From Stylophora pistillata (lineage: Eukaryota), in contig NW_019218206.1 in assembly GCF_002571385.2 (NCBI RefSeq), positions 179,902 to 243,901 of the forward strand: a DNA stretch of 64,000 nt. Direction: 5' to 3'. Positions 8,001-37,245 of this stretch are shown here, one piece after another. The stretch's first letter is position 1, and each line of letters opens with the position of its first letter. The notes beneath the pieces are model-generated. The model ran no database searches. It had not been told where the DNA came from and saw only the letters and a list, made by a program, of their open reading frames with translations. The position numbers and the translations under genes are program-made.

Positions 8001-11000
8001 GGAAACCTTTGTTAAATAGTGCTTCCAGTTCTGCGCGTGCTTGCGTGAAAAAATTCGTTCTTCTTTCCCAGTTTTGGAGGAGAGTCTCGAATCGTTGTTC
8101 AATGCATCTGCTAAATGCCTCCTTCATCTTTGAAAAGTTTTGACCCTCTTCCGTTTTAGGCAGAGGGTTTTCTGTCCACCTGCAAAAGTTTCTTTTAAAT
8201 TCATCAGTTTGTAGGTAGGAAGCAAGTTCTTGTTCCACTTGTTTCACATACAAAATTATGGCGCCCTCGATTTCTCGGATGGGGTTGCCTTCTTTAAGCT
8301 TGCTGAGTTTCTCGTCAAGTTCCTCCCGAGCCTTGAGACGTTCTTCTTTGTTCCTTTTGGCGTTATACATTTCGCCTTTCAGCTGATCGGACAAGCTGCA
8401 GAGCTGGCCGCTAATCCAGCTGTCAAACAGAGCATAAAGATTGATTAACTGCATGTTAAAAAGCTGTTTTCTTCTCGTTTAGTCGAATGCGACTCATTTT
8501 CTTAAATTTGTTTTCCTTCAAAAGTCTTTTGGATTGATTCTTAACTTCATAAGACCAGTTGAATAACGTTTATGCAAGCTTAGTATTTCGGATTTCTTTT
8601 CGGAAGTGAGCAAATATTCATTTCGAACACGGTTTGGAAACACTTCGCAACGTCTTGATTTAAATGTATCTACTGGGAAACATTTTTCTGTAGCTCTTTC
8701 CGGCCGTAAAAAGGTATTGAATTTATAGCACATCTACAACGCCCTCTTTGATAGAAAAGTGTCACATCTAGTTGGATCGGATTAACAATAATCTGTACCC
8801 CTTGGCTTCTACAAACAGATTTATCCTCAAGGGTTGAGGGAAATTGGAAAAAGTTTTCCTTAGTAACGTGTGTTTAAGATATTGGATAATTAGAACAAAG
8901 TGTGAAATCAAACTTACAAGTAGAAAAATTCTGTTTTTCTCTCAATGCAAAGTGGCAGAAGACGCTGTAGTCGATTCACAAGACTGTTGAGATCATCACT
9001 CATTACGTTGAATTTCTTTTGTACAGATGTGGCTCTCGAGACTGACATCTTAATAATTTGGAATTTTCCATCCAGTCCAGGAATGTTCTTTTTGAGAGAG
9101 TCGATGATGTGCCTTTCAGGATTTTCCTCCTGATTTCGGTTAGACTGCTCTTCCACCTCGTCCCACTTGTTACAGACAAAAATAGCAGACTCGGAAGGGA
9201 TGCCACAGCCATCTTTTCCCTTGTAGAGTTTTATCCATTCACTCAAGATAAGCATCAGCTGAAAGATTTTTCGCAAAAACTAGATTTTAAGAATGGAAAA
9301 TCATATTTGCTGTCGGGGCATTTTATTTGAAAACAATTAAAATGGGGTGATGCGTCTTTATGAGTGACCCATATTTTGATCTGAACATAATATATGTTTA
9401 CTCAACAGTGTATGAGATAGAAAGCAAATCATAAGTTTACCCTGTCCTTTTGTAATCCTCCAGCGTTTGGAGTGTTTATCACGTAGATAAAGGCGTAGGC
9501 TCGACTTAAGTATTTCAAGGTGATCTCACTGACGCTCTTTGAATCGCCAATTCCGGGGCTGTCTATGATCACTACACCACCCTAAAGAGAGAGAAACGAA
9601 TACTTATTAAGTATTTGAATGAATAGTGATCCATTTTTATGCTGTTTGGTCGTGCATAAACTCCTAGTGCGATTTTCCTATTCACTAGGATCATCATCGT
9701 CAATATAGAGGCGAGCTACAGCTCAACTCAGCACAATACAGAAAAGAACGGTAGAGCTCATTATCAACCTAACACACCTGATGAAACAGAGTACTAAACG
9801 AAAGATATATACCTAGGTCTGTTTTGATACATGTCCACCGGCTTCACCAGTGATGTTGTCCCTATACAACAGCGAGCGGGGAGAGGAGAGAAAAAGTGTT
9901 TTGTAATTGGCTAAAACGCTTGTGCCAGTAAGGGCTCGAGAAGTGTATACCTTGGATTTTTTTTCAGCTGTTTATCAAAGATTATTACTATACCATGCAG
10001 AACTGTTTGATTATCCCAGTTACTTTTATTGTACGCACACAAAAAGTCTTATCACCTTCAATAGTAAATTTGGAATCCTGATCTCTATCTTCTCACACCA
10101 GTTTTCATCCTCTATTGGTTTTTTAATGTAATCTTTATACTTGTCAAATCTCTGCCCGGTAAGGACAAGAGATAACCCACGTCTATTAGCGAAGTGCAGG
10201 ACAGCTTCTTTGATCGCTCCATACGATATTTCGCATATGGTCAATGTACTCTGCTTTATACTGATTGGCATTATGGAGTCGTTAAGTAAGAGGTTAATAA
10301 GACTGCTTTTTCCAGCGCTGGTTTCTCCTGTTTTAGGAAAATAGGAAGGGTTTTAAAGAATGAAACATGAATTACATTTCTATTATAGAGAATATTTGAA
10401 AATTAGCCGTTTTACACCCGTGGATTAAAGGCGATTCGTGCCTTCAGACTGATAATTTGTCGGACCACAACCGAGCTACATGGGTTAACCTCTAAAAATG
10501 ATTACCAAAATTCCCTAGTCATAAAATCCTTTGAAGCACCTGATGAAAATTTCCTTAGTATTTCCAAAACCTCAATTATTTTTTTGTTATTTTCATATTT
10601 CGTCACTGCTATAATTTTGTCTCAGGACTGGTAAGATTGCGAGGCGAAAGGAATGTAATGCAGACCAAGGGGCGTTGGGGAGAAGAGTTTTCCACGGCTT
10701 TCGGTATGAGGAAATGCTGACAATGAAAGATCAAAACTTTTAAGTATTGAGAGTGGCGAATGATGACTCAACCAAGAGGAACTAGTAATTAAGAAAAAAC
10801 CCTGAATTCTTCTGGGACAATCAGAATGGTTCAGAATGGTTTCAGGTCCACTGTTACAAGACTTACCAAGAATAAGAACAGGGTATCTCTTGGTTCCGAG
10901 ATCCTCAAGACGAACCTCAGCTTCCCTCCGAAAGTCATTTATCTCAGTCTCGCTAACTGCTTGAGTTTCCTGTAGATTTTCTTTAACTTTCAAATAGTAC

Positions 11001-11062
11001 TTTTCCAGGACTTGACGGCGATCGAGTGTTTGCTCTATATCGCCTAAGATTCGCTGATATCC
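5003..11062 (-). CDS. Dynamin-like GTPase / DSTYK-like kinase fusion, copy A (exons 2-8; exon 1 missing beyond the gap)
   Basis: GT-AG exons with consistent phases: 10867-11062, 10056-10327, 9441-9581, 8918-9258, 7235-8419, 6267-6531, 5003-5395. Motifs: G1 GETSAGKS, G3 DSPG, G4 NKWD; kinase GKGTYG, VAVK, HRDLKLAN, DLG, APE, DIYSFG. Confidence 0.85.
7066..7190 (-). mobile_element. Old tRNA-derived SINE fragment in kinase-gene intron 6 (orthologous copies at ~17707-17831 and ~53665-53790)
   Basis: The minus strand has A/B-box-like GTGAAAGCGCTCG...GGTTCGATTATC, followed by a CATGCGGATTGA.CTTGTT..TAGTT..TGTCCTTG-type body typical of invertebrate SINE2 elements. Confidence 0.55.
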
Positions 11063-11153: not shown

Positions 11154-11894
11154 NNNNNNNNNNNNNNNNNNNNNNNNNNNNNNNNNNNNNNNNNNNNNNN
11201 NNNNNNNNNNNNNNNNNNNNNNNNNNNNNNNNNNNNNNNNNNNNNNNNNNNNNNNNNNNNNNNNNNNNNNNNNNNNNNNNNNNNNNNNNNNNNNNNNNNN
11301 NNNNNNNNNNNNNNNNNNNNNNNNNNNNNNNNNNNNNNNNNNNNNNNNNNNNNNNNNNNNNNNNNNNNNNNNNNNNNNNNNNNNNNNNNNNNNNNNNNNN
11401 NNNNNNNNNNNNNNNNNNNNNNNNNNNNNNNNNNNNNNNNNNNNNNNNNNNNNNNNNNNNNNNNNNNNNNNNNNNNNNNNNNNNNNNNNNNNNNNNNNNN
11501 NNNNNNNNNNNNNNNNNNNNNNNNNNNNNNNNNNNNNNNNNNNNNNNNNNNNNNNNNNNNNNNNNNNNNNNNNNNNNNNNNNNNNNNNNNNNNNNNNNNN
11601 NNNNNNNNNNNNNNNNNNNNNNNNNNNNNNNNNNNNNNNNNNNNNNNNNNNNNNNNNNNNNNNNNNNNNNNNNNNNNNNNNNNNNNNNNNNNNNNNNNNN
11701 NNNNNNNNNNNNNNNNNNNNNNNNNNNNNNNNNNNNNNNNNNNNNNNNNNNNNNNNNNNNNNNNNNNNNNNNNNNNNNNNNNNNNNNNNNNNNNNNNNNN
11801 NNNNNNNNNNNNNNNNNNNNNNNNNNNNNNNNNNNNNNNNNNNNNNNNNNNNNNNNNNNNNNNNNNNNNNNNNNNNNNNNNNNNNNNNNNNNNN
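11154..11894. other. Assembly gap (N run)
   Basis: 741 N bases. Confidence 1.
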
Positions 11895-14800: not shown

Positions 14801-17800
14801 TCGAGTAAATTGTACAAACTTCTGTAAATTTGATATAATACTTAATTTCACTCTATTGCTTGGTAATAAAATGTAAGATAAGATAAGAAATCAAACTTCT
14901 TTGAAAAAAATTTGAGGCAACAATTACAATCATTGATCATTAACTGATATTATATATAGGTTCAAAGAGAAAAAAAAATCTGTGTTTAACTTCATAGTTA
15001 AACTCAGATGTCCTCCATTGTTAATCTGCTTTATCACTTTTTTTGTAACAATTGAGGATTCGAGACTGTTTAACTTCAAAGTAGAACTCAGGTGTCCTCC
15101 ACTGTTAAAGACTTGGTAATTTATTTTTGTGACAATTGAGCATTTTAGATTGTTTGAATTCATAGTAGAACTGAGATGTCCTCCACTGTTAATCTACTTT
15201 GTAACATTTTTTGTAAAAACTGAGCATTCTAGATTGTTTGAATTCATAGTGGAACTGATAAAATAGAAATAAAAGTATTTTCAAATTAAACTCCAGAGCT
15301 CATGAAATTGTTGCGACCGTTGAACGATTGAAACATGCCTCATACTTGGAGTCCTAGGGCCGAATAATCGTGCGGCTAGAAATGAAAGGCGCCTTAGGCT
15401 CACGAAAATATTTACGCAGAGGGCAAATGAGCCAGGCTCTCACCCACAAAGCTACTGGTACCCTTTTTTTGAGTCAAGCCGAAATTCCTGTTATATTTTG
15501 GTCTCACCGGCATATATTTCTGTTGGTCCCTAAGGATCAACTCATCTGAGCATGGATGTCAGTTGTTTGAAAATAAACTGAAAATTATTATGAACGCAAA
15601 AGGAGATAAATCATCCTGTAACCTACTTAACATGTCGATGCTTTTAAGCATCGACAGAAATTGTCTTAATGATGTCTTTACATTTGGTGGCTGTTGGCCT
15701 CAAACTTGAGTCGGATTGCCAACTCGATGTCATGAGCTCTATCCATTTTGCTGGAGGGAGATTACCATTCTCGGGAATTTGTGGACGATAATACTCGTCT
15801 TTAATTCGTATAGTAAAGAATTCTTCACGGCGTAGTTCGGTAAAGACGCGCTTCCCAAACCACATTTCCCACATCATGAGACCAAAACTGTATATATCCA
15901 CCTTTGTGCTGTAAAGTTTGCCTTCCATTACTTCCGGTGCCATATACGGTTGAGTCCCACACATTGTGCCAATGATTTTGTCTTCAAAGGTTGCTAGGCC
16001 CAAGTCTGCAACTTTGATGTAATCATCTTTTGAGATCTGCAAATAATGTCAGGCAAAGTTAGTTTCCTGAAAAGGTTTCTTAATTTACAAAACATCAATC
16101 CAAAAAAGAACCCCTATTTGCTCCGGCTTTAGGTTAAACTCTTTGTCCCTTTGCCAAGTACCTGTATATTTCAAATTTTCAAAACGGTGGTAGAGACAGC
16201 ATAGGAGCCAATAAACTCACCTTGCCGCAGCTTATCCCGATTTCATTCGCATAAAATCGACCAAGATAATTTTACATGCAAATTTTTCAAATGACCAAGA
16301 AAAAACTCGAGTCATCTAATGCTCATTTCGAACAACTGAAATATTAAGAGAATAAAGTGTGGCCAAAGGACTCATCTCGCCGCAGCTCATCCCGATTTCA
16401 ATGGAATCTTACATGCAACTTTTTAAAATAACCGAGAAAAAATTCGCATTGATCAAATGCTCATTTCGAGCAAATGAAATATTAAGCTAATAAAGTGTGA
16501 CGCCGTAATAATTTATGCACTGGTGGTGGAGTCAGAGTATTCTCCAACATGTGAACCTAACATCTGAGCTGATGTGGTCATTGGATGAGTTTTTGCTTCG
16601 GATATTTTTACAATGGTTACCAAATCGAGATTTCCGGCAGATTACTGTTGAAACAGTCATTGATATATCGGAAAAGTCTAGCCAGCACTTTTTTTCCGAG
16701 GTCATTTTAGGATTACGTAATTTCCATTACCTAATTTCCATTACCTAATTTCCATTACCTAATTTCTAATTTCCTAATTACTGACTCACCAGAATTTTCT
16801 CTTTGTCCTACGATTGTGACAACACAAAGAAAGGATAATTTTTCATTTTGATCATTAAAATCTGGTCTGGTTTATAATTGATCACATTTCATCCTCTATC
16901 AACTCACTAGAATGTTGGCTAGCTTGAGATCCCGATGGACAACATTCTTGCTATGGATGAATTCAAGCGCATCTAAGATTTGTTTTGCCCGGGGCATGAT
17001 CCAAGCTGCTGCACTGGCCGTCTTCCATGGAATGTACTCATCATTTTCAAAGATTTGCTGGTCTAGGCTCCTGATACACAAGTCAAACACTAGAACCAGT
17101 GAAACGAGTTCTCGGTTTTGAACGTCTATGCCCACTCCATAAAATGTAACGATGTGCTTGTGTTCAAGTTGCCTGCGTGAAAGATGGTGACCAAATTAAT
17201 ATTGAGTTAGGCTAAGTACCCGGGTGTTCAAATTGCAATGAATTCACCAGGGTATCCTTTTTTTTAAGCCTTCTGAAAGTGAACTGTGAAAGCGTAAAAG
17301 TGCGATCCGATTAGCAATCTTTTCTAACAGTTTATGATAATGTATAAATTTTAGGCCCCATTCCCTGGAGTAAAATTAACGATGCTTTACAATTTACTGT
17401 AAAATGATGGTGAAAAGCAAGAGCTTATTTATTGCTTGGAATTTTACCACCCAAGAATCTATATACTCACATCTGATTGAATAACGGAAGGATTAACTGG
17501 ATTATTTAAAATGGAAATGGCACCAAATAATTTCAATTGTAGTTAATTGTTCCTAATCTGCAGATTGGGGAGGATAAAATTAAGTGCACCTGCGATCAGT
17601 CAATTGAATCTCAGCAGAGGCCATTTCACAGAGTGACTCCATTATTTTTTAAATTAAATTGTGTTAGTTTAGCATAAATAATTATAGTAAAGGAAGAAAA
17701 AAAACAGAGAATCCCTGGGAAAACTCTTAAATGCAAGGACAACAACTAATAACAAGGTCAATCCGCATGTAACACCAGGTACGATAATCGAACCCACGCC

Positions 17801-20800
17801 ATAGGAGTCGAGCGCTTTCACTTCTGCATGAGGTAAAAGCACTGTTCCCTAGCTATTCTGATCTAAAAAACTTACTTTAGCATCGCTGCTTCTTTTAGAA
17901 AGGTAGCAACATTTGATTTATCAGGATGCTCCCGGATCTTTTTGACTGCAACATCTGTTTTTTCATGTCCAGGAGGAGAGTATCTTCCTTTGAAAACCGT
18001 CCCATAAGTGCCTTTACCAAGGTGAGCCTCTCTTTCTTTCTCATTGTAATTAAGTCGTCTCAAATCAAGCTGGCAAGATGGGTACATCACCTGTATTCCA
18101 TTTTGGATCGCATCGAACATCAAGTTTTCATTCATGTTCTTCAAGTTTGAGTGCAATGGACTATATTTTTCTAGGATCTCTTTTTCCCTTGATTCGTCTT
18201 CGCTCTTTGTCAGATCTTTGCATCGCTGCTCGTATTTGGTGATTAACTGTTGGTGACACCTCTTGATTTTTGCAATGCGATTCGTCTCCTCGCTGAATCT
18301 GTCTTGAACATAACTGGGGATTTTATTTCTGATGAAGTCGTCAAGGAACTTCTTCGAGAGGTCTGTTAGTGTTTGACAACAATTGTTCTTCAGTTGAAGT
18401 TCCTTTAAATGCTTTCCAAATGGCAGTACCCCAAGGACGGGTGCAGTAAGAAATCCGGCAGTGAGGCCTACAGGTACGAAAACTGTCCATAAAATCAAAC
18501 CAGTCATCACTAGAAATTTTCGCCTTCCTGGATCTAAGGGTGAGAAAATCCGGCCTGGGTGAATCTCAAAAGGTTGGCAATCTTCCACGTCACTCCCAGT
18601 AAGAACACGGTCGATGTCTCGAATTTCTCTCTCAAACTCTAGGAAACCTTTGTTAAATAGTGCTTCCAGTTCTGCGCGTGCTTGCGTGAAAAAATTCGTT
18701 CTTCTTTCCCAGTTTTGGAGGAGAGTCTCGAATCGTTGTTCAATGCATCTGCTAAATGCCTCCTTCATCTTTGAAAAGTTTTGACCCTCTTCCGTTTTAG
18801 GCAGAGGGTTTTCTGTCCACCTGCAAAAGTTTCTTTTAAATTCATCAGTTTGTAGGTAGGAAGCAAGTTCTTGTTCCACTTGTTTCACATACAAAATTAT
18901 GGCGCCCTCGATTTCTCGGATGGGGTTGCCTTCTTTAAGCTTGCTGAGTTTCTCGTCAAGTTCCTCCCGAGCCTTGAGACGTTCTTCTTTGTTCCTTTTG
19001 GCGTTATACATTTCGCCTTTCAGCTGATCGGACAAGCTGCAGAGCTGGCCGCTAATCCAGCTGTCAAACAGAGCATAAAGATTGATTAACTGCATGTTAA
19101 AAAGCTGTTTTCTTCTCGTTTAGTCGAATGCGACTCATTTTCTTAAATTTGTTTTCCTTCAAAAGTCTTTTGGATTGATTCTTAACTTCATAAGACCAGT
19201 TGAATAACGTTTATGCAAGCTTAGTATTTCGGATTTCTTTTCGGAAGTGAGCAAATATTCATTTCGAACACGGTTTGGAAACACTTCGCAACGTCTTGAT
19301 TTAAATGTATCTACTGGGAAACATTTTTCTGTAGCTCTTTCCGGCCGTAAAAAGGTATTGAATTTATAGCACATCTACAACGCCCTCTTTGATAGAAAAG
19401 TGTCACATCTAGTTGGATCGGATTAACAATAATCTGTACCCCTTGGCTTCTACAAACAGATTTATCCTCAAGGGTTGAGGGAAATTGGAAAAAGTTTTCC
19501 TTAGTAACGTGTGTTTAAGATATTGGATAATTAGAACAAAGTGTGAAATCAAACTTACAAGTAGAAAAATTCTGTTTTTCTCTCAATGCAAAGTGGCAGA
19601 AGACGCTGTAGTCGATTCACAAGACTGTTGAGATCATCACTCATTACGTTGAATTTCTTTTGTACAGATGTGGCTCTCGAGACTGACATCTTAATAATTT
19701 GGAATTTTCCATCCAATCCAGGAATGTTCTTTTTGAGAGAGTCGATGATGTGCCTTTCAGGATTTTTCTCCTGATTTCGGTTAGACTGCTCTTCCACCTC
19801 GTCCCACTTGTTACAGACAAAAATAGCAGACTCGGAAGGGATGCCACAGCCATCTTTTCCCTTGTAGAGTTTTATCCATTCACTCAAGATAAGCATCAGC
19901 TGAAAGATTTTTCGCAAAAACTAGATTTTAAGAATGGAAAATCATATTTGCTGTCGGGGCATTTTATTTGAAAACAATTAAAATGGGGTGATGCGTCTTT
20001 ATGAGTGACCCATATTTTGATCTGAACATAATATATGTTTACTCAACAGTGTATGAGATAGAAAGCAAATCATAAGTTTACCCTGTCCTTTTGTAATCCT
20101 CCAGCGTTTGGAGTGTTTATCACGTAGATAAAGGCGTAGGCTCGACTTAAGTATTTCAAGGTGATCTCACTGACGCTCTTTGAATCGCCAATTCCGGGGC
20201 TGTCTATGATCACTACACCACCCTAAAGAGAGAGAAACGAATACTTATTAAGTATTTGAATGAATAGTGATCCATTTTTATGCTGTTTGGTCGTGCATAA
20301 ACTCCTAGTGCGATTTTCCTATTCACTAGGATCATCATCGTCAATATAGAGGCGAGCTACAGCTCAACTCAGCACAATACAGAAAAGAACGGTAGAGCTC
20401 ATTATCAACCTAACACACCTGATGAAACAGAGTACTAAACGAAAGATATATACCTAGGTCTGTTTTGATACATGTCCACCGGCTTCACCAGTGATGTTGT
20501 CCCTATACAACAGCGAGCGGGGAGAGGAGAGAAAAAGTGTTTTGTAATTGGCTAAAACGCTTGTGCCAGTAAGGGCTCGAGAAGTGTATACCTTGGATTT
20601 TTTTTCAGCTGTTTATCAAAGATTATTACTATACCATGCAGAACTGTTTGATTATCCCAGTTACTTTTATTGTACGCACACAAAAAGTCTTATCACCTTC
20701 AATAGTAAATTTGGAATCCTGATCTCTATCTTCTCACACCAGTTTTCATCCTCTATTGGTTTTTTAATGTAATCTTTATACTTGTCAAATCTCTGCCCGG

Positions 20801-21794
20801 TAAGGACAAGAGATAACCCACGTCTATTAGCGAAGTGCAGGACAGCTTCTTTGATCGCTCCATACGATATTTCGCATATGGTCAATGTACTCTGCTTTAT
20901 ACTGATTGGCATTATGGAGTCGTTAAGTAAGAGGTTAATAAGACTGCTTTTTCCAGCGCTGGTTTCTCCTGTTTTAGGAAAATAGGAAGGGTTTTAAAGA
21001 ATGAAACATGAATTACATTTCTATTATAGAGAATATTTGAAAATTAGCCGTTTTACACCCGTGGATTAAAGGCGATTCGTGCCTTCAGACTGATAATTTG
21101 TCGGACCACAACCGAGCTACATGGGTTAACCTCTAAAAATGATTACCAAAATTCCCTAGTCATAAAATCCTTTGAAGCACCTGATGAAAATTTCCTTAGT
21201 ATTTCCAAAACCTCAATTATTTTTTTGTTATTTTCATATTTCGTCACTGCTATAATTTTGTCTCAGGACTGGTAAGATTGCGAGGCGAAAGGAATGTAAT
21301 GCAGACCAAGGGGCGTTGGGGAGAAGAGTTTTCCACGGCTTTCGGTATGAGGAAATGCTGACAATGAAAGATCAAAACTTTTAAGTATTGAGAGTGGCGA
21401 ATGATGACTCAACCAAGAGGAACTAGTAATTAAGAAAAAACCCTGAATTCTTCTGGGACAATCAGAATGGTTCAGAATGGTTTCAGGTCCACTGTTACAA
21501 GACTTACCAAGAATAAGAACAGGGTATCTCTTGGTTCCGAGATCCTCAAGACGAACCTCAGCTTCCCTCCGAAAGTCATTTATCTCAGTCTCGCTAACTG
21601 CTTGAGTTTCCTGTAGATTTTCTTTAACTTTCAAATAGTACTTTTCCAGGACTTGTCGGCGATCGAGTGTTTGCTCTATATCGCCTAAGATTCTCTGATA
21701 TCCCTAAACAAAGAATGATTAATTACAAAGAAGTAAAACGTTGTGAGTGGTTGCACCTAAAATAGCTACTCGCTGAATCATTTTTATTGACAAA
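11895..21794. repeat. 9.9-kb near-identical direct repeat, copy 2
   Basis: Matches 1254-11153 at offset 10641, including the TSP1 exon (12036-12239), the TE remnants and kinase-gene exons 2-8. Confidence 0.95.
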
Positions 21795-24700
21795 GTATGG
21801 CTATTTGCATAATTTCAAAGTAGGAAATGGTCTAATGATTCTCATCAGCGTTGTATTTTTATGTGGAGAGATTGAAGCCCACGATTACCTTTCTTCCTCG
21901 GAAAAGACGAACAAATCTTTTAAGAACGTGTCCACGAGAGCATCAGGGAGTCGTGATAGATGCCATCGCACCGATTTCAATGAAATTTTGCCAGTTCAAA
22001 GGTTCTACCTCAAAACTCAAAACGACAAACTGGTTTCTGCTTTGGTTATTTCCGGGGGGAGATAGACCACCCCCCGGTTTTTCTAGGTTTTCACTAAAAA
22101 ATGGCCTCAAAATAGGTTAAATGTAAGAAGCAGTTACTGCAACTGTATTTCACATATCAGTGTGATGGTTTTCATACATATTGGTACATCCTTAATGAAT
22201 GTACCATGCAACTTTCAATTGACTTGATTGACGGCTTTTCAGTCAGCAGAGGTGAATGTTTTAGTGTGTTTTTACACTTTTCGATTCACTCAAATATTTG
22301 GTAACTTTGAAGTCAAATACCTCCCCTTGCCAGAAAGTTGCAACACTAATTTGAACGCGCCTTTCTAGTCCATTATTTCATCTCTGAAAATCACTAAAAA
22401 TAATATTTGGTCACTGCCATACTTTTGTCTGGAATGCCTTTTGAATTCTGCCACTGTGAAAGCTCCTCTCAACTACACCTGTCACGCAATTCTAGTTGCA
22501 GGCAGTTATTTAGGCAAGTACACCATCATTTTTTAGCTCGTTAAGCAAGATAATTAATTAATCAAGGAAGCTAAGAAATGTGCGCAACTTTCCAGATTCT
22601 TGATAGAAATTGGAAATTTCACGTTTAAAGAGGAGCATGTAGGTGAAATATTGATGGGTTAATCGTACCGTTTCTCTCTTCTGTCGTTTATTTTAGAGAT
22701 TTGTTAAAGATATGCAAATATGGCTTTTTTACGGCGAAAAACATTTATAAGTCTTTGATTTGATTGTTTATTATCACAGTTGACAATGAAGAGAGAGGAG
22801 ATTTTAAGGTCACATGCCGCGTGCTTGTTGACATACAAGTTCCCGAGTACAGCAACTTCGGCTATTACATACAGTGGATGACGAGAAACTCTGCTGTCTC
22901 GTTTGAAAGGAGATATCAATAGCTCTATCAAGTTCATAAATTGCGTAATTTCTCCAGAAAATGTGTTGTTGTTGCCACTTACCGCCATAATGAAATTTCC
23001 ACGCAAAAATGGTATTCATACCGTAACTTAACTTAACTTAACTTTATTTAAGGATGGTAGCGCAATAGCCTGTTACAGTTTTCTAACCTGCGGCCCTCAC
23101 ACCCACCCACCCCACCCAGGGGAGGACATCCATTACACAGTAATCTCGTGCGTGGGAAATCAACGTCTCCTACCCCTAACCCTGCAGGAGACAGGATCTC
23201 CATTTATTCGTCCTTATCCGACTTATCCGAGAGGACTGGAATATCTAACCATTTCTTGATGTTATAGAAAGGTAGCATATTCTTCTCAATTATTTTTAAG
23301 ACCTTTAGTGTTGGTTTGGCCGGGGCTCGGACCCTCGACCTCCCGCACAACAGTCCAGCGCTCTATCCATTGAGCTAACCGGGATGCTGCGACGCGGTGA
23401 TGACCTCGTAACCTTTCATAATTATCAAGCCCTTTTTCAAGGTAACACCTCCAGAATGTTCTAAAAACCTTTATCATTACAACTGCCTGGTTTTCGCTAG
23501 AAAATTTCATCTGCCATTATTTTCCCTGAATGTTATGGCCTTTCCAGCGTGAGTGTGCAAGCCAGATGTTACATACATGGCACTCTTGAGGGTTTCGTTG
23601 GGCAGTGACGGGCTCAGGTGTCTAGGTCTCGTTGAAAACATTTCTGTATGCTGCAAATTGGCCAGCAATATACGCTTCCGCTGCTTTTTTCATCACCATA
23701 ATGCAACCAATATTTTTTTTTTGCCGGAAACTTTTGTAAATGATAAACTAGACACGTTACATGTACGAATACGTGATGTTTTTTAGGGTTATAGAGGTTA
23801 TCGTGACCCCCAACACATCCATGCACGTTCTTGTAACGTCTGAAAAATGTCACGCACGTACAACACCTTAGGCACATCTTGCGTCGCTGCGGATGCCGTC
23901 CGTTTGCTTCACTAAGTCTGTGACCCCCAAACACGTCACGCATTCATGCGTGTAACGTCCAAAAAATGTCACTGATGCACATCATCTTGGTGACACCTTA
24001 ACGCTTGCTTCACACTATGCGCACAGGTCGAAAAAAGATATTTAAATGAGTAAGATTTAATATATTTGTAAAAACTCCTTGATGAAATCTGCTATAGTCA
24101 GACGAAACGCGTAGGAGATTAAATCAAGTATGCTCAATAATTTATCATTCAAAAAAAGGTTTCGATTAAAAGCAAAACAAAACAAAATAAAACTGTCATC
24201 TTGCTCCTAAGCTGAATGGAGTCAAGGGCTGCTATGCAATATTATGTCAAGTTTAGCCATCCGCGTAAGCAATGCCCAAACATACCATGACCGGCGTACA
24301 GGCATAGAATAACTTCTCGTACAAGAATAGAGACGTGAGAATGTGGCGTGCTTATGATAATGGAGGTGGAAAGATTTAGAGCGCAGATCAGCTCGCACGG
24401 TTTGGAACACCCCAAGGCCCCACTAGGCTCGTCACAATGGATCCCTTCAGCAACCCAAACGTAGAACTGAAGCAGGTAGTTATCTGCATCCTGCGCAGAT
24501 ATCTGAACCTGGGTCATCACGAGAACTACCCAATCCTAGCTTTCTTCTTCTATCTGTGAGCCCAGCTAATCGTGAGAATTTATAGCCTTTTATTAGTTTA
24601 CAGTTAGCCCCATTCAGACTCTCTAGAAGTCCACATCTGATTCCGTCAATTTTCATAACTTTCTTGCAGATGTGAAGTGGCAAAATTTAGTCGAAGACCG

Positions 24701-27700
24701 TAGGGTATGGCACAGCCACCATTAAGTTACTAAAAATACAAACGTTTGCCTCTCGCTTTTCGTTCAAATATATTGTCATGCTTCCGAAAACAACGGGATC
24801 TTTTTTACAATTTTTTTTTTATCATTACCTAACTTGAATGGAACCTTGCGCACAGCCTACTGATATTTCGGCCTCATTCTTTAAGTCACGCTATTTAAGA
24901 TCGGGTTTGAGAGAGATGCATATTTTCTTCATGTAGTTACAGCATGTTTTAAGAGGTGCAGATATTTTTTTTGATCAATGGGCAAGTATATAAGAAATAG
25001 ATCTGCAGAATTTTCGAAAGTTGTTCCTTAGCAGACAGTGTGAACAACGCGCTTGAATAATTCACATCCCTATGAAACGTTTCCAAGTCACGCCACAGAT
25101 GTTTAGTTCGACCAAGTTCTGCATGGAAATGTTCGATAGTAGTAAGTGACAACGATAACACCATTCTAGTTTTATTTTCTGGAATAATATAGCGCAGTTT
25201 TTTCATTTAACATCGCTACTGAAATTTCCTTTTAAGCGAGAAGACAGAGCTTCTCGTCTGTACAGCAAACGGAAACTTGTACGTCAACACGAATGCGGCA
25301 TGTGACCTTAAAATCTCCTCTCCCGTTGCAATCTCTTGATTGTCAACTATGATAATAAACAATCAAATCAAAGACTAATAAATGTTTTTTTGCCGTAAGA
25401 AAGCCATATTTGTTTATTTTTAGCAAATCTCCAAAATAAACGACAGAAGGGAGAAACGGTACGATTAACCCAGCAATATTTCGTCTACATGCTTCTCTTT
25501 AAACGTAAAATTTCCAATTTCTATCAAGAACCTGGAAAGTTACTCACATTTCGTAGCTTCCTTGATTAATTATCTTGCTTAACGAGCTAAAAAATGATGG
25601 TATACTTGCCTAAGTAACTGCCTACAGTTACAATTTCGTGACAGGTGTAGTTAAGAGGAGCTTTTACAGTGACAGATTTCAAAAGGCATTCCAGACAAAA
25701 GTATGGCAGTGCCCAAAGATTTCTTAGTGATTTCAGAGATGAAATAATGGAATAGAAAGGCGCGTTCAAATTAGTGTTGCAGCTTTCTAGCAAGGGAAGA
25801 TATTTGACCTCAAAGTTACCAAATATTTAAGTGAATTGAACAGTGTAAAAACACACTAATTCATTCACCTCTGTTGATTGACAAGTCGTCAATCAAGTCA
25901 ATTGAAAGTTGTATAGTACGTTCATTAAGGATGTATCAATATGTATGCAAACCGCGCCATCACAGCAACATGTGAAATACAATTGCAGTAAGAGCTTCTT
26001 ACATTTTACCTATTCTGAGGCCATTTTTTAGTGAAAACTTAGAAAACCAGGGGGTGGTCTATCTCCCCCCCCCGGAAATAACCAAAGCCGAAACCAGTTT
26101 GTCATTTTGAGTTTTTGGGGTAGATCCTTTGAACTGGCAAAGTTTAATTGAAATCGGTGGGATGGCATGCATCACGACTGCCTGGTGCTCTACTGGACAC
26201 GTTCTTAACTACATGAATTGATTGGGGACTATTTCTGCTACCGCTGTCGCTTCGCACATGAAGAATGCACAGAATGCACACAAATGTATGACCTACGTGC
26301 ACAGCATGTCGTCTTATTGTCTCAGACCTTTTTCTAGTTTCCGCTTTCGTTTCATACTAACACGCAATGGGAATTGTACACGTTTCTACTTCTTTTCCGC
26401 ATCAACTTCCTGCGAAATCCGTGAAGATTAGGAAGAAACTCCTGTCAGCGTTACTGGAAGTAAAATGCTCCGACAGTATTCGATAACTTAAAGTTGGGAG
26501 CTTATATTCACTGAGTCTTCGTTTATTCAACGGTATCAGGTCTAGGCTTAAGATCTTAATCTAAACTTGTTTAGTAAATCTCGAGATGATACTGTCGTCT
26601 GTGCCCCTGATATGCATATCATTGGGAGGTTAAATGCACGAAGTTTCCAGAACTGATTACCCCCTTTTATAAACACAGCCATCAGAATAAACAGAAGTAG
26701 TTTCAGTTTGAAAGATTTTGAGAACTTTGCTTCGCACAATGTGTTGTTGATTGTATCATCGAAAATGTCAGTTGCTCCGTGTCTCTTGCTTACACGCTGG
26801 ATGACTTACATTATAAACGATCTCTATTGCTTTATCCGCTTTGTAACTCCCATTTCCGCGAAAATTCATGTACCGTGTGTGCTAATGTTAGCTGACTTCC
26901 TTTTAGTCTTTTTCCTTTCCTTGTTTTCAGTCGGGTGCGATGATAACAAATAGGACTAATGTGTGAGATGAGCATGTTGTCGATGTAAATCACCAAGTGA
27001 TTTAATTTGAGGGATCAGTGCAATGAATTTTGAGGGCTCAGCGCAAGCAGGATTGAAAGAAAGCATAACTTAGCATCAATGTTGACATTTTGTTCACACC
27101 CTAGTGCTTTTAGTGAAGTCAGTTCTGCTGTCTGTCGCAAATGATATATTCCATAACAAGTAATGTACTGTTCATTTGAAAATAAGGTCTGAAAATCATC
27201 GTTCGTTTTCGATGCTAAAATGTTTTTTGCCTTACATTTTTATGAATCATACATAACATATGAGTCAATTGAAACATACTTTCCGGTATTAAGCGCCCCG
27301 TAGAGCAAGAATTGGCAGAAAACATAGGTTCATGTCAATGTTGACATTTTGTGTACACTTTCATGCTTTCAGCGAAATGAGATTTCTTAGGTCTGCTGTC
27401 TGATATAACTAAACACATTCCACGAGCATTGCACCGTTCATATCGACACAAGGTTTTGGATATCACTACAAATGTACGGCCTTGAAACTAATTTTGCTTT
27501 TTTAGTCAGTAGACGAAACAGCATGTCTTGCGTTTATATAATGTAGGTGTGTGTTTGACCTCGATTGATCGATGAAAGCTTACCGTTCCTAAAGGTCCGT
27601 TTGTTTTCCTTAACTCGGCGATTCTCTTTTCGCGAAGTTCTTTTGCCCTCTCCATGTCGGTAACCTCCTCTTTGACACATAGTAGCTGTAAATCCTGCGC

Positions 27701-27751
27701 TAACTCAGAAAGACTTTCGCTTCGCCTTCTTACAGGCCTCGGTTTCGACAT
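15644..27751 (-). CDS. Complete dynamin-like GTPase / DSTYK-like protein kinase fusion, copy B (8 exons, 986 aa)
   Basis: Exons 27584-27751, 21508-21703, 20697-20968, 20082-20222, 19559-19899, 17876-19060, 16908-17172 and 15644-16036 total 2961 nt, are all GT-AG and splice into one open frame. Features: P-loop GETSAGKS, DSPG, NKWD; hydrophobic hairpin FLVMTGLILWTVFVPVGLTAGFLTAPVLGV; kinase with HRDxKLxN and DLG, as in DSTYK. Exons 2-7 have identical sizes in paralog C. Confidence 0.88.
23024..23383 (-). mobile_element. tRNA-derived SINE nested in the TTAA element
   Basis: 5' tRNA-like head CCGGTTAGCTCAATGGATAGAGCG...GGTCGAGGGTCCGAGCCCCGG (A and B boxes) and a 3' (TAAGT)n tail. Confidence 0.75.
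24075..24117 (+). ncRNA. Minimal type I hammerhead ribozyme-like motif (Penelope/retrozyme type), degenerate
   Basis: CTCC-TTGATGA-A-ATCTG(ctatagt)CAGAC-GAAA-CGCG-TA-GGAG. Stem I is CTCC/GGAG, the core is (C>U)UGAUGA plus GAAA, stem II is TCTG/CAGA, stem III is the palindrome CGCG, and the cleavage site is UA. Confidence 0.55.
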
Positions 27752-29401: not shown

Positions 29402-32400
29402 TCAACGACCTATTGGGTATGTGTCTACTCTGTCTGGTAGAATGATTCGCTTGTCATCATCAGCGGATAGAGCGAGTTTGTTGATCTCCTCCATAAACAT
29501 CTCATGCTTTCGACTTCTGAGGGTATTCATTTTCCGATGCTGTTTTTTACCATCAAACAAGCATCTTTTATAATTATCAAGATTGATGGTACGCTCTACC
29601 ACTCCCGTCTTCACCCCCTTACACTTCTTTTTCTCTTCTCCACTATCAAACATCTTATAGCAATAAAGCTTTGCCCTCAGACCAACAAACTCCTCAATGA
29701 TTTTTCCACCCGCCTCATCCTTAAACTTTCCAATAACTTTCTTGTTTACCCCGGTTGGTATCCCAGAAGGGTGATCTTTTGAAATGTTGCTTGTGTCAAA
29801 CAAACAATCCACATCATCAATTATATCTTTGTAAAAGTCTTCAGTCTGAATCTCATAGCAGAGACTGTCTGTATCAGTGAAAAGAAGCTTTGCTCTATCT
29901 CCGTACTTGGGTTTGATGTAGTTGTAATGAAAGTCATACATCAGAGTCTTGCTGAGATCGAGGATACACATTCCGAGATAGAGAGGTTTGTTGAAGGTAA
30001 TTTGCGTCTTTCTCATCTCTACCGCACAGAGATTCTCAGAGAATATGGTGCAGTGTTTGAAGTTGACCTTATTTACCAATTTTTTTGCCTTATCTTCTGA
30101 GTTGACAAGTCTCACATCAACTCGTTTTCGAATATTTTCCATCGTCTTTCCATATACAGAAATGTTCATGAGTTTGAAAAAGTCTTTTTCGAAATCGTTA
30201 TCAGCCTTGGCTCTCAACTCTGTATTTAAATCGATGTACTTTTTCATCCAAGGACTCTCTTTAAACTTGATGATACGGTGAATCTTTCCAATCTCAATTC
30301 CAAGACTCATGTAAAGCTTCAATGTCTCGTGATGAACGATGTACCTCTTTTTTTCGTTTAAGGTACAGACCAACTTATGAACTTTTCCAATCAACAGATT
30401 TTCAGGAGCTGGAGGATAATCGTTAAAATAATCATACAACTCTTTTTTGATGGGAAGTATATCAACCTCAAGAATGCAGGGAAAACTCTTCCAACCCCCA
30501 AAGTCTTTCTCATCTACCCATTCAAAACCACCTGTCGGTAGATTTTGACTCATCGCCCAGCCGTAGAGATTGTTTGCGTCAAGATATGTGATGAAACTTG
30601 AAGGTATGCTTTTATCAAACTTTTCACCCATGTATTTGTTGTTTGCTTTTGCATATCTTTTTGTAATCATCGAAATCCCTCCGCGAATGCCTTTTTCAAA
30701 CATATGCAACATGTTTGGATCACTCAACAACTCAAGCTCTATCTCAGTCATCTTGAGGCATGCATCCCAAGCCAAACCTGGTGCAGTGTAGTACCAACAG
30801 GGGTCGAGGTCATAGTTCTCCTTGCAAACCTTTCGAAAGTTTTCAAAAACGTCACACAGCAAGAGAACATCACTTTGATTGTAGAGATTGTGATAATCTC
30901 GCATCGTTTTCATCTCAAAGGTTTTCCACACCTCTTTTGCATGATTATATTCCGCTTCCGCTATACCACTACCACTGAGAACAGAGAAAAAAGCTTCAAT
31001 CGGTGGAAATTCAGTCTCATCAAGCTTGTTGATAGAATTCAACCACTCGTAAGGATAGACACCCTTTCTCTTCAATAAGTCAAGCTTTTCTCCATCAAAG
31101 TATCTTCCTGTATTCACTAAAGAGTCATCCTTTTTGGTGAGGTTGTTGACAAGCTTGTCAAGACTGGAAGCCATGAATTTGAAGCTGTCAATGAACCTCA
31201 ACTCTCTCTTGACAACAACATCTTCTTTTTTCTTTTTGTTGAAAAACTTGTCAACCACAACACTCTTTGTGAAGCTGATGTATTTTTCTTCGTTGTTGGG
31301 AATGCAATTAATATCACCTTCTGAAACACCGAGATTTCTAACGAAGAGATGGGCGTCATAGTTTGCCAAATTGTGAAAGACGACAGGAGTAAATTTTGGT
31401 CGTTGGAATCTCAGGTTGCAACTATTATGCGCAGCTCCTCTAAATTTACCGGTGTAATGGCAATGATCACGAACCTTTACATCTTCCATCTTGAAATCTT
31501 CTCCACACAACCAACAACACATCGCATTTTCAAAGAGTTCAACATCATTGTCTGTGAAGATCATCTCTTTTTTGGGATGGTTTTTGTAAATAGTCTTAAC
31601 CTCTTCTTCAAGCATGTTAACAAATATCTGTGCAACATCTTCATCTTCAGACTTTGCTGTATACTCAACCAGTTTTGAATGTTTGTCATCGAAAGAGCAT
31701 TTAACAAAGTAGCAAAAACTCACTGGGATATGTTTCTGCTTCTTTTCGGTATAACACTCTTCAGGATTCGGTTGAACTGTGTGCAAAGGTTTGATGATTG
31801 ACTCAAAGTCAGCATAGATGACGAGCGGCATGTCCATCTTTTTATAGTTGTTTTTGAAAGAGAGAAAAGTTCCCTCTTTCGGCTTCTTCTCTCTCACAGC
31901 CTCATGATCTCGACAAAGTTCGCTGTGTACGTCAAGAAGTTTCTGATAACCGAAATAATTAAGACATCTCTTGCAAATAAACTTTTTATGTCCATCTTTT
32001 GATAGGTCACTCGATACAAGTCGACTTAAAGATTTGATGAGACAGTAATGTTTTTTCTCACTTTTTTCACCTTCATCACCTTCACTGTCTAAGCAGTGAT
32101 CAGTGATGAGAAGAAGATCAATATGGATCTTGCTGCTCTCAACCTTACTCACTCTCAAGGGTTTGAGCCCACCTTCATACATGTAGACGTTGATAGAAAG
32201 ACTCGGATTCAACTTTTCAAAGCGGTGAATTTTTGTCACCTCCATCGGAAACTTAATCCCATCCCACACAAGCTTCTTTGCCTGCTCTCTCAATGTCTTT
32301 GAGATACGCTCTTGGTCCTTTTTTACAGGATTCAACGCTCTTGTCACACACCATTTGAAACATTCATCATCTTCATTTTTTATGTTTATGATAGCCTTCT

Positions 32401-33235
32401 TATCTGCGAGAAATTTTGGTAGCTTAATGTATGAAGAACCTTTCAAAGGAGTGTATTTCGCCGTATGCGAATCTAAACCCTCAACCGAATGGATAAACCA
32501 ACCGCTTCCATTTCTTGTAAACGTAGCCAAACTCTCCATCATTTTGTCAACACATTCTTGATAAAGTTCTTCTCGATCAGTATCTTGAAAGACAATCTTG
32601 GAAGATGAATTAAAATATACAAGCTCTAGCACAGTCTCACCCGTCACAATATTTGTCTTTGACATATTACACTTCAGAACGAACTCCACCTTGATATTCT
32701 TCTGCGTTAATAAAAACTTTATTACGGTCGGTTTTACACCCTCCAGAAAATCCATCGGTCCATAACCCCCCACCCCATCAATTGTGTACATCTTTACAAA
32801 CCCTTTCAATGCAGACTTTTTCTCAACAAGTTTGAAACGATACTGATCTCTTTTCTCGTAAAGCTTAGCGATATGTGTTTTGAAATCTTTCAACTTGTCA
32901 TCAACCACCACTCGTGGTACATCAACCTGTTCCTTCAACCACTGACCCCAATCTTCTACCTCCCTCTTCCCCCAATCAACAGCCTTATCTATCTTTTTTA
33001 CCAGCAAAGCTGGTTTTGACGGTATTAATATATTCTGCTCCTCCGGAATCTCATGTTCAGGAATCGGATCATCGAGTAAATTACGTCTCTCTGAAACCAC
33101 TTTCTTATTGTTTGGTATTGACTGATTTATAAAATTGATAAGTTCTGCTTTTCGAAGTCTTGAATAACCACGAAGACCATTTTCCTTTGCAATCTGACGA
33201 AGTTGTACAACAGTATGTTTTTCCATTTTCTGCAT
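29402..33235 (-). CDS. polB: Protein-primed family B DNA polymerase (pPolB) with N-terminal vOTU-like domain and inserted HNH/endonuclease VII-like domain
   Basis: 1277 aa. Exonuclease motifs YADFES, FHNLANYD, YNQSDV; polymerase motifs YLDANNLYG, KLMNISVYGK, TDTDS. HNH-like CWLC...VRDHCHYTGKFRGAAHNSCN. OTU-like DDECFKWC...HYCLI. Confidence 0.95.
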   Translation of the reverse strand: MQKMEKHTVVQLRQIAKENGLRGYSRLRKAELINFINQSIPNNKKVVSERRNLLDDPIPEHEIPEEQNILIPSKPALLVKKIDKAVDWGKREVEDWGQWLKEQVDVPRVVVDDKLKDFKTHIAKLYEKRDQYRFKLVEKKSALKGFVKMYTIDGVGGYGPMDFLEGVKPTVIKFLLTQKNIKVEFVLKCNMSKTNIVTGETVLELVYFNSSSKIVFQDTDREELYQECVDKMMESLATFTRNGSGWFIHSVEGLDSHTAKYTPLKGSSYIKLPKFLADKKAIINIKNEDDECFKWCVTRALNPVKKDQERISKTLREQAKKLVWDGIKFPMEVTKIHRFEKLNPSLSINVYMYEGGLKPLRVSKVESSKIHIDLLLITDHCLDSEGDEGEKSEKKHYCLIKSLSRLVSSDLSKDGHKKFICKRCLNYFGYQKLLDVHSELCRDHEAVREKKPKEGTFLSFKNNYKKMDMPLVIYADFESIIKPLHTVQPNPEECYTEKKQKHIPVSFCYFVKCSFDDKHSKLVEYTAKSEDEDVAQIFVNMLEEEVKTIYKNHPKKEMIFTDNDVELFENAMCCWLCGEDFKMEDVKVRDHCHYTGKFRGAAHNSCNLRFQRPKFTPVVFHNLANYDAHLFVRNLGVSEGDINCIPNNEEKYISFTKSVVVDKFFNKKKKEDVVVKRELRFIDSFKFMASSLDKLVNNLTKKDDSLVNTGRYFDGEKLDLLKRKGVYPYEWLNSINKLDETEFPPIEAFFSVLSGSGIAEAEYNHAKEVWKTFEMKTMRDYHNLYNQSDVLLLCDVFENFRKVCKENYDLDPCWYYTAPGLAWDACLKMTEIELELLSDPNMLHMFEKGIRGGISMITKRYAKANNKYMGEKFDKSIPSSFITYLDANNLYGWAMSQNLPTGGFEWVDEKDFGGWKSFPCILEVDILPIKKELYDYFNDYPPAPENLLIGKVHKLVCTLNEKKRYIVHHETLKLYMSLGIEIGKIHRIIKFKESPWMKKYIDLNTELRAKADNDFEKDFFKLMNISVYGKTMENIRKRVDVRLVNSEDKAKKLVNKVNFKHCTIFSENLCAVEMRKTQITFNKPLYLGMCILDLSKTLMYDFHYNYIKPKYGDRAKLLFTDTDSLCYEIQTEDFYKDIIDDVDCLFDTSNISKDHPSGIPTGVNKKVIGKFKDEAGGKIIEEFVGLRAKLYCYKMFDSGEEKKKCKGVKTGVVERTINLDNYKRCLFDGKKQHRKMNTLRSRKHEMFMEEINKLALSADDDKRIILPDRVDTYPIGR

Positions 33236-33322
33236 ATCTGATATTATTAAACTTTTTTTTAAGTTTTTTAAATTTTTTTAATCACTTGATTTAAGTGATT
33301 AAAAACTATCTCGATGTGAGCT

Positions 33323-33817
33323 TTACTGTTTAAAACGATATTCTTCGAAATGGAGGGCAAACTTTTTTCCATCAAGTGTGATAAAGTTTCTTGTACTCTC
33401 TTTGAGTGCATTCAACTTTGATGTAAACGTTGAAGGATTTACCTTAAAATGTTTTGAAGCAGCATTGACCGAGGGAAAAATGAGTTTATCTACAGATGAA
33501 TCTATAGATTGAAGTGTCACTTTTCTCCTCATACCAATGTTTTTTGCGCGAGGAGGTGGAGGATTTTTGATAAATTTAATCAACTCTCTCTTCACCTTCG
33601 TAGAATATCCTTGTAATCCCATCTCTTTTGCTTTTTCGATAAGTTCGTTTTTTGACAATCTCTCGAGAGAATCCAACTCGGGAGGATTTTTGATCAAGTC
33701 AATCAACTCTTTTTTGTCAAGTAAATAACATCGTTGCAATCCCATCTCCTTTGCCTTTCTCATGAGTGCACGCTTTGAAAAATACTCAAGCTCATCCATT
33801 TTATTTATATTAAACAT
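33323..33817 (-). CDS. Putative DNA-binding protein: two Rho_N/HEH-like repeats plus a NUMOD1-like HTH
   Basis: Internal repeat LSKxxLxxKAKEMGLQ..K.ELI..IKNPP occurs twice. C-terminal FPSVNAASKHFKVNPSTF is a NUMOD1-like pattern. Confidence 0.6.
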   Translation of the reverse strand: MFNINKMDELEYFSKRALMRKAKEMGLQRCYLLDKKELIDLIKNPPELDSLERLSKNELIEKAKEMGLQGYSTKVKRELIKFIKNPPPPRAKNIGMRRKVTLQSIDSSVDKLIFPSVNAASKHFKVNPSTFTSKLNALKESTRNFITLDGKKFALHFEEYRFKQ

Positions 33818-33857
33818 TTTTTTAAGATTTTTTTATTCAATTTTTTATGAATTTTTT

Positions 33858-34814
33858 TTATATTTTTTGAAGTTCACTCTCATCAATCCATGAGTTGAAT
33901 TTTTCTGGATAACCACTCCACTTTACGAGAGCCTTTCCTTTACTCTTTCGAATAACCTTCTCAATAAGGAAAACATCTTGTTTTGCTCTCAACATCTCTT
34001 GTTCGTAGAAAGAACCTTTGATCTCTTCACCGAGCAGATCCTTTAACTTGTAAGTGATTGGGTTGGAATATTGCGCCTCGTCAACGACAAAAATCTCTTC
34101 TGTCCAATTCGGAGTAAATCCTTTGTCAAACACTTTTCGTTTGAATTTGGAGATTCGAACGTGATCGCCAACTGCAAATTTTGGTCTCTCCCGCAATCTA
34201 CTCAAATCATCGCCGTAAAGTTTCAGAAAGACAGCATTCTCATTTTTTTTCTTGGATGCCTCTACCGGAGTCATACCAATCGATCTATGTTTTCGATTGT
34301 TGTACTTCTTAACGATGTGTGGTAGAATGTCGAGATACTGTGTGTTGTTCTGAATGGTAAACTGTTTCCACATCTCAGTTTTGATGGTTCGTTTCCACCT
34401 CTCACAGACAGACGATTTTTCTTCATTCTCTGTCGAGTACATCTCAACACCTTCAGCTTCCATTAGATCTTTGACATGACTGTTGTAATACTCTGAACCC
34501 TTGTCAACCCAGAGTCTCTTCGGTTTTCTCCCTCCAACAAAAATCTTTCTGAACCCATCCGAAACACTCTCACCCTTTTTATTTTTCAACGGTACAATCC
34601 AACCGTATTTGCTAAAGACATCCAACACCATCAGCAGATATCTATAACCCTCATTCCACTTTTCAAACTTTTGCATCTCAACCAAGTCAGAACACCAAAT
34701 CTCATCGATTCCGTTGACAATAACGCGTCGTTTTCTAAAGTTTCGTCTCACCGGTCTGTGCAACTCATCTGCTAATTCTTCTTGCCACCCTGAGCTTTTT
34801 TTGAGCTTTTTTTT
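33858..34814 (-). CDS. int: Retroviral-type (rve) integrase with C-terminal chromodomain; no own AUG before the first catalytic Asp
   Basis: DDE triad WCSDL / WVDKGSEY / VCERWKRT, then GDHVRIS and chromodomain ALVKWSGYPEKFNSWI. The ORF-track start at 34874 is GTG, and the first ATG (34676) lies after the first catalytic D. Confidence 0.9.
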   Translation of the reverse strand, partial: KKKLKKSSGWQEELADELHRPVRRNFRKRRVIVNGIDEIWCSDLVEMQKFEKWNEGYRYLLMVLDVFSKYGWIVPLKNKKGESVSDGFRKIFVGGRKPKRLWVDKGSEYYNSHVKDLMEAEGVEMYSTENEEKSSVCERWKRTIKTEMWKQFTIQNNTQYLDILPHIVKKYNNRKHRSIGMTPVEASKKKNENAVFLKLYGDDLSRLRERPKFAVGDHVRISKFKRKVFDKGFTPNWTEEIFVVDEAQYSNPITYKLKDLLGEEIKGSFYEQEMLRAKQDVFLIEKVIRKSKGKALVKWSGYPEKFNSWIDESELQKI

Positions 34815-35632: not shown

Positions 35633-35647
35633 CTCTTGAAAAAAGCA

Positions 35648-37235: not shown

Positions 37236-37245
37236 TAAAAACAAC

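Follow-up and report, generated by a model that had tools for sequence, protein, structure and literature searches.

Does a coral gene in which a dynamin-like GTPase, a hydrophobic segment and a protein kinase lie on one polypeptide encode a signalling protein of internal membranes, and might such a protein serve defence? The question arises from a 64,000-nucleotide stretch of the Stylophora pistillata genome (NCBI RefSeq assembly GCF_002571385.2, contig NW_019218206.1, positions 179,902 to 243,901 of the forward strand), hereafter the window, for which a first-pass annotation had proposed a tandemly expanding family of such fusions as a candidate innate-immune or membrane-surveillance system. 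At its centre stands copy A (15644..27751, minus strand), an eight-exon gene for a 986-residue protein composed of a GTPase of the class of bacterial dynamin-like proteins (BDLPs) and mitofusins, a stalk, a hydrophobic segment and a kinase. The fusion is a real spliced gene, and the family to which it belongs is apparently an undescribed branch of that class.

A spliced GTPase-kinase gene

All exon boundaries of copy A are of the GT-AG type, and the product contains no internal stop. Exon 1 (27584..27751; this and all following exons on the minus strand) encodes residues 1-56, N-terminal helices that are kept in a second paralogue of the window, copy B, and in the NCBI model P0001; intron 1, of 5.9 kb, lies directly after it, and exon 2 (21508..21703; residues 57-121) supplies the helices preceding the GTPase domain. 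The GTPase motifs are distributed over exon 3 (20697..20968; G1, GETSAGKS, at 122-129 and G2 at T149; Dynamin_N, 1.4e-7), exon 4 (20082..20222; G3, DSPG, at 219-222) and exon 5 (19559..19899; G4, NKWD, at 289-292, with the start of the stalk). In exon 6 (17876..19060), a single reading frame spans the stalk, the hydrophobic segment (residues ~553-588, with a Kyte-Doolittle maximum of 2.03), the return helices and the kinase N-lobe; exon 7 (16908..17172) continues the kinase up to HRDLKLAN, and exon 8 (15644..16036) contributes the C-lobe (DLG, APE) and the stop codon. All catalytic residues of the kinase are intact (K746, E763, HRD 847-849, N854 and DLG 867-869), and Pfam recognises both Dynamin_N (E 2.9e-15) and Pkinase (E 3.4e-49) in the product. 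The NCBI model P0001 (LOC111339834, Stylophora pistillata), equal in length to this product, is composed of exon 1 of copy A and the alleles of copy D, a near-identical neighbour discussed below.

Spliced joints were found in the polyA RNA run X4 at five of the seven predicted introns (2-3, 3-4, 5-6, 6-7 and 7-8), joints 1-2 and 4-5 being absent from those listed for the run. Joints 5-6, 6-7 and 7-8 lead from where the GTPase ends into the kinase, so the single spliced reading frame proposed in the first-pass annotation is borne out, and its GTPase and kinase exons do not belong to separate genes. Intron 1 also contains a very high-copy short repeat (23115-23384), covered at a depth of hundreds of thousands in sequencing run X16, and two inverted copies of a 950-base segment that are 88% identical (21920-22845 and 25270-26208).

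Fold class of the front half

As judged from sequence profiles and predicted structure, the front half of the protein is of the BDLP/mitofusin class and not of the Mx or classical dynamin type. An AlphaFold2 model of the copy A protein, built on a 63-row alignment, reached a predicted local distance difference test score (pLDDT) of 81; with this model as the Foldseek query, the top two matches were Nostoc BDLP, ranked above all kinases, the best being 2J69 (E 1.7e-18, 724 columns, template-modelling score 0.55 by target, root-mean-square deviation (rmsd) 9.4) at 16% identity in the structural alignment. A front-half profile built from 11 kinase-less or truncated members likewise retrieved BDLP from the PDB over GTPase and stalk (E 4.5e-28), with MFN1/2 second (1e-14), followed by IniA and Campylobacter DLP1/2; Drp1 and OPA1 were weak (E ~0.006-0.02), Drp1 at the P-loop alone, and Mx was absent among the best 60 of 85 PDB rows. 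In PADLOC, the family protein P0002 matched the anti-phage dynamins LeoA (E 1e-13) and LeoBC (E 7e-9), and the clusters met in the ESM Atlas, at 0.93-0.94, were those of bacterial dynamin-like proteins and of mitofusins.

The domain architecture agrees with this placement. Family proteins fit the dynamin-type G1-G4 motifs with Dynamin_N above cut-off, neck- and trunk-type helices flank the GTPase (as indicated by the Foldseek match to 2J69 and by the profile over GTPase and stalk), and a hydrophobic segment lies between the stalk halves in 50 of 63 aligned members. Nostoc punctiforme BDLP (PDB 2J68/2J69) and its kin, Campylobacter DLP1/2 (5OWV), IniA (6J72), DynA and LeoA/LeoBC, have their parts arranged alike, from N-terminal helices through GTPase, stalk and hydrophobic tip to return helices, with intact G1-G4; the coral family differs in being animal and intron-rich, in its C-terminal kinase and in its dozens of paralogues. 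The architecture of BDLP/mitofusin type suggested at first pass is upheld; a membrane-inserting paddle or hairpin at the stalk tip is putative, as the hydrophobic segment has a pLDDT <50.

Other comparators fit less well. The mitofusins MFN1, MFN2 and Fzo1 are the second-best profile match in the PDB, and NCBI names kinase-less models of the family 'mitofusin-like'; nevertheless, mitofusins have no kinase, and the Pfam domain Fzo_mitofusin (PF04799) was not detected in P0001-P0006. Moreover, a separate mitofusin-like gene exists in the coral (contig C203), whose partial sequence groups with other rows, outside the family, in the GTPase tree. ROCO proteins (LRRK1/2), which also combine GTPase and kinase in one chain, serve as a conceptual model for nucleotide-gated kinase control. 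The likeness drawn to them in the first-pass annotation does not extend to a Roc-COR unit, as the Pfam scan gave Roc at E 0.07 over 27 residues (the P-loop alone) and no COR match; the coral family is without COR or leucine-rich repeats and has a dynamin-class GTPase. Mx, the other model proposed, shares the dynamin superfamily and offers an antiviral precedent (PMC11789081), but it is a poor model for the coral family: it does not occur among those 60 PDB rows, and the Pfam domains Dynamin_M and GED gave no match in the family proteins scanned. The word 'kinase' has no occurrence in the available part of that source.

Several further dynamin-like genes were met during these searches. Contigs C1072, C265, C718 and C650 carry another set of coral dynamin-like GTPases, whose hydrophobic tips are rich in Gly/Ala; no kinase lies in the 10 kb retrieved, and the GTPase tree unites them with the partial mitofusin (96). 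Two intronless open reading frames (ORFs) of ~1200 residues (C603:57059-60673 and C200:289301-293065) combine an N-terminal dynamin-like GTPase with a C-terminal enzyme-like domain. The 22-kb contig C1703, with its bacterial-looking genes (a dynamin-like protein, a replication-initiator-like ORF, a helicase and a small nuclease/immunity-like pair), probably stems from a contaminant or symbiont whose DNA entered the coral assembly, and a scan of prokaryotes returned at least one Clostridium locus with dynamin-like ORFs.

Size and turnover of the family

Relatives of copy A, 81 in number, were collected from stony corals, an octocoral, amphioxus, hemichordates and molluscs, where they are named 'uncharacterized', 'DSTYK-like' or 'mitofusin-like'. 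Among 63 aligned members, the G2 threonine and NKW[DE] are invariant (63/63 each), D[ST]PG is kept in 61, and the 50 hydrophobic segments mentioned above were scored at a Kyte-Doolittle value >=1.6; the kinase lysine, HRD aspartate, asparagine and DxG aspartate are all retained in 35 of the 51 kinase-bearing members. In the fetched coral DNA, at least 37 family loci were counted on nine contigs, a locus being defined by at least three exon types (copy D included, 10 smaller fragments excluded); this count is a lower bound and may contain other allelic duplicates. Stops or frameshifts interrupt 14 of these loci, 10 possess all GTPase-to-kinase exons and no stop, and in the remaining 13 some exons were not found.

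In trees, paralogues mostly group by lineage, and expansions have recurred in corals, amphioxus and bivalves. Tandem expansion, pseudogenes and lineage-specific clades thus coincide here as in the innate-immune multigene families of invertebrates, and the birth-and-death pattern anticipated at first pass is evident. From its sequences, this is a large marine-invertebrate family that gains and loses copies fast.

Relation to DSTYK

The resemblance to the kinase DSTYK (RIPK5/SgK496) noted in the first-pass annotation raises the question of whether copy A is simply its coral orthologue. It is not, because the coral DSTYK gene lies elsewhere (C99:475031-482682), at the one place in the coral genome that matches a DSTYK motif, and has matches under the name DSTYK in animals ranging from sponge to arthropods; over the exon used as query it is 70-72% identical to other copies from corals. 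The family, multi-copy as it is, and DSTYK form separate, fully supported groups in trees. Neither of the two outcomes that the first-pass annotation had named as refuting it was thus observed.

The two are nonetheless alike in length, domain order and kinase motifs (HRDxKLxN and DLG), and they share a BDLP-like predicted fold. With the kinases removed, hhalign aligned their GTPase regions with a probability of 91.5 (E 8e-7; reversed controls <=2%) and found no significant match between their stalks. Foldseek placed BDLP first for a model of coral DSTYK (E 2.8e-11, 734 columns, rmsd 42), the large deviation being read as a different hinge angle. As a lead only, the front part of Nematostella DSTYK met exclusively Dynamin_N clusters in the ESM Atlas (score 0.80); a second look with VIA-align was uninformative on the front half, as it returned kinases alone. 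What separates DSTYK from the window family, besides its being a distinct conserved gene, is decay: the G3 aspartate and the G4 NKxD are lost in all 31 aligned DSTYKs, a fish DSTYK is also without the P-loop lysine, and the hydrophobic segment is present in none of the 31, while the window family keeps both motifs and segment.

A third group, clade II, is DSTYK-like and combines Dynamin_N, stalk and kinase with intact G1 and G3. It is represented in the coral by three or four genes with intact GTPase motifs (C7:1893737-1922452 and C73:812560-817712) and elsewhere by Saccoglossus, Ptychodera, Glandiceps, Tubulanus, Lingula, Branchiostoma and Macrostomum, that is, in hemichordates, a nemertean, a brachiopod, amphioxus and a flatworm. 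Clade II is nearer to DSTYK than the window family is in GTPase, stalk and kinase, and its stalk obtained no score with the stalk profile of the window family; the careful kinase tree places DSTYK within clade II (95/91), and other trees unite the two at 96-100. On account of the BDLP-like model, the lost motifs and this nesting in a clade with intact GTPases, the front part of DSTYK, some two-thirds of the protein, is a decayed dynamin-like GTPase of BDLP-like predicted fold, a larger point that the first-pass annotation had missed. For the ancestor of DSTYK, the coral genes on C7 and C73 are good models.

A single ancestral GTPase-kinase fusion for the family and DSTYK is favoured, as the more probable history though with real reservation, because of the shared domain order and size, the distribution of C-lobe matches, the shared introns and the score of a constrained tree. 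Two kinase introns occupy the same codon and phase in the family, the clade II gene on C7 and DSTYK. A search of the coral genome with the DSTYK C-lobe, which favours kinases with an unbroken exon, gave 39 matches: DSTYK itself, three on C7, 34 on the family cluster contigs and one tyrosine kinase. A GTPase tree constrained to one clade scored 15.8 log-likelihood units above the free quick tree (approximately unbiased test, 0.76), whereas free quick trees had put the family beside bacterial rows, split from DSTYK; kinase trees joined the family and DSTYK at a support of 37, and the careful kinase tree did so in 16% of bootstraps. These figures hold for a GTPase tree that omitted the three longest bacterial branches, a careful kinase tree from which 28 of the 70 rows, for the most part pseudokinases, long branches and near relatives, had been dropped, and outgroups without most animal tyrosine kinase-like kinases and full mitofusins.

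Mechanism, function and alternatives

GTPases of the BDLP/mitofusin class are known for GTP-driven opening, pairing of GTPase domains and insertion into lipid. By analogy, the copy A protein likely assembles on membranes and signals there. Its hydrophobic segment would insert into an internal membrane, on which the GTP-bound protein would dimerise and polymerise; as the kinase sits after the last stalk helix, such assembly would bring kinases together, and their clustering may switch them on and yield a membrane-stress or defence signal. BDLP itself passes from a closed form off the membrane to an open one on membrane binding and then oligomerises (PMC10280142). An internal membrane is suggested because DSTYK resides on late endosomes, which its overexpression enlarges (PMC6981171), and phosphorylates STING there (PMC11933320); the target could, by the same analogy, be the endosome, the phagosome or the symbiosome. 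Defence is suggested by gene turnover together with DynA- and Leo-type precedent, as phage defence by DynA requires membrane binding (PMC12998192) and a two-gene dynamin system defends in a P-loop-dependent manner (10.1101/2022.05.11.491447); a defence role for the family is, on this analogy, plausible. That copy A is a fast-turnover paralogue encoding a BDLP/mitofusin-class GTPase-kinase, which assembles on a membrane and so activates its kinase as a stress or defence signal, is the best explanation at hand, with a probability that we would place just short of even.

A number of observations weigh against this explanation. Of the 51 kinase-bearing members, 16 have a degenerate kinase, and approximately one fifth of the aligned models have none at all, so the kinase cannot be an obligatory output. 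The ratio of nonsynonymous to synonymous substitution rates (dN/dS), pooled over independent close pairs, ranges from 0.40 to 0.62 by region and nowhere exceeds 1; the hydrophobic region is highest (0.62, 0.46-0.87, with intervals overlapping between regions), and two short single pairs reach 1.07-1.09. As every region lies below 1, nothing at pooled-region resolution points to an arms race. The hydrophobic segment of the copy A model, at pLDDT <50, is in effect unmodelled; the LeoA and LeoBC matches indicate class, not function; and the N-terminal HEPN_DZIP3 of two Oculina models (P0003 and P0042, one also with a TRADD-like N domain), which would count in favour of the explanation, may be a gene-model artefact. 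Lastly, expression of copy A is not high everywhere, coverage being approximately nil in two raw-read RNA runs (2% and 6% sampled).

The alternative that survives best, although we consider it unlikely, makes the GTPase the effector, one that repairs or fuses membranes or wraps microbes inside the cell; the kinase would then be no signalling output but an accessory part, a regulator or scaffold by which assembly is tuned. The frequency of dead kinases and the existence of kinase-less models speak for it, as do the better conservation of the GTPase (mean column conservation 0.58 vs 0.47 for the kinase) and the fact that BDLP-class proteins act alone in bacteria (PMC12998192). Yet the catalytic residues are complete in copy A and in all sampled stony-coral members but one, paralogue dN/dS is at its lowest in the kinase C-lobe (0.40), and some losses are those of pseudogene models, the kinase-less P0025 appearing to derive from a locus whose exon 6 contains stops; DSTYK, moreover, retained its kinase while its GTPase was lost.

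Less probable again is a housekeeping role, in which the protein would regulate endolysosomal or symbiosome fusion in the manner of DSTYK, and the expansion would reflect tandem-duplication drift or tissue specialisation and not immunity. Purifying selection in all regions would suit such a role, and lysosome and vacuole biogenesis is the best-shown function of DSTYK (PMC6981171); however, the coral already possesses a conserved DSTYK and a mitofusin-like gene, and the breakage of more than one third of the detected loci, with recurrent expansions in corals, amphioxus and bivalves, would be unusual for housekeeping genes. That the fusion is an annotation artefact of adjacent genes or a dead locus is very improbable, for although joints 1-2 and 4-5 are not among the listed RNA joints and the two raw-read runs have almost no coverage, stalk and kinase N-lobe share one exon, joints 5-6, 6-7 and 7-8 occur in RNA, full-length fusions occur in contigs of 3-4 kb (too short for the intron-bearing gene and so probably transcripts), and dN/dS between copies A and B is 0.38.

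A broader scenario, which extends the membrane-assembled GTPase-kinase preferred here to the whole lineage, is more doubtful than that explanation taken by itself and is offered tentatively. A GTPase of bacterial dynamin type may have been fused once to a kinase and inherited by animals; the invertebrate defence family would then be a counterpart of DynA and Leo, sensing or wrapping damaged or microbe-bearing membranes and signalling through its own kinase, and vertebrates would have kept only the GTPase-dead DSTYK, a mitofusin-like tether behind lysosome fusing and STING phosphorylation.

Other copies and neighbours in the window

Copy B (51876..59244, minus strand) is a true paralogue with the same eight exons, 83% identical to copy A in amino acids (dS 0.23; range of the dN/dS value given above, 0.30-0.49). 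An in-frame TGA at 56192-56190, at the G3 glycine, makes it a probable young pseudogene or null allele; the description of at least two real paralogues, one with a stop, is thereby confirmed.

Copy D (5003..11062, minus strand) holds exons 2-8 only and adjoins an assembly gap of N (11154..11894) at the junction of a 9.9-kb duplicate; it is 99.6% identical to copy A, with 37 differences over 9.9 kb, introns included. Run X16, which was read as DNA because its contigs span introns, shows long-contig depths of 119-135 in the region common to copy D and 111-135 in unique region, and D-type bases are seen at a single locus in runs X4 and X16. Given this equal depth and single locus, copy D is most likely the second allele, set beside copy A across the gap during assembly, and was rejected as a third paralogue; that the sequenced animal carries a genuine duplication of very recent date is the less probable reading. 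Exons of TSP1_ADAMTS type flank the kinase genes at 1338-1619, 11979-12260 and 62547-62936 (minus strand), and positions 2-1634 match 61200-62847 at 88%, so that the duplicated unit may include a TSP1_ADAMTS neighbour.

Between copies A and B lies an endogenous viral element (29402..45426, minus strand) with ORFs for an integrase with chromodomain, an A32 ATPase, a double jelly-roll capsid, a PLA2-like protein and collagen, a gene set from which we take it to be Polinton/adintovirus-like. Its ORFs are long and open, with the capsid region in two overlapping frames and an N gap near the right end; no terminal inverted repeats of the element were found. At least 119 integrase matches are spread genome-wide in the coral, and besides the window's own only two lie on a family contig (C345), so a link between virus and kinase cluster was rejected, and the presence of a virus inside the cluster needs no special cause. 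Its position is probably the coincidence for which the first-pass annotation had allowed, and the element not part of the system.

Significance

Literature searches returned no description of the family or of a GTPase fold in DSTYK, although several were loose or off-topic, and supplements of genome papers or subscription journals could hold one. The front part of DSTYK, a gene linked to the diseases CAKUT1 and SPG23, has been described as 'two non-catalytic regions' (PMC6981171); PMC9573974 treats, in its available part, the kinase alone, and 'GTP' has no occurrence in that of the paper on DSTYK and STING (PMC11933320). The surprise is limited, since automatic annotations already show the two domains together.

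With the family, a large animal branch is added to the BDLP/mitofusin class, in which a membrane-remodelling GTPase is hard-wired to a kinase. For DSTYK, which is a human disease gene, the predicted models would supply a structural identity for the first 640 residues, and the late-endosome fusion reported for it becomes testable as dynamin-like tethering, for which the invertebrate relatives with intact GTPases are working models. For corals, the fusion genes are candidates for a part in defence inside the cell or in the control of the symbiosome.

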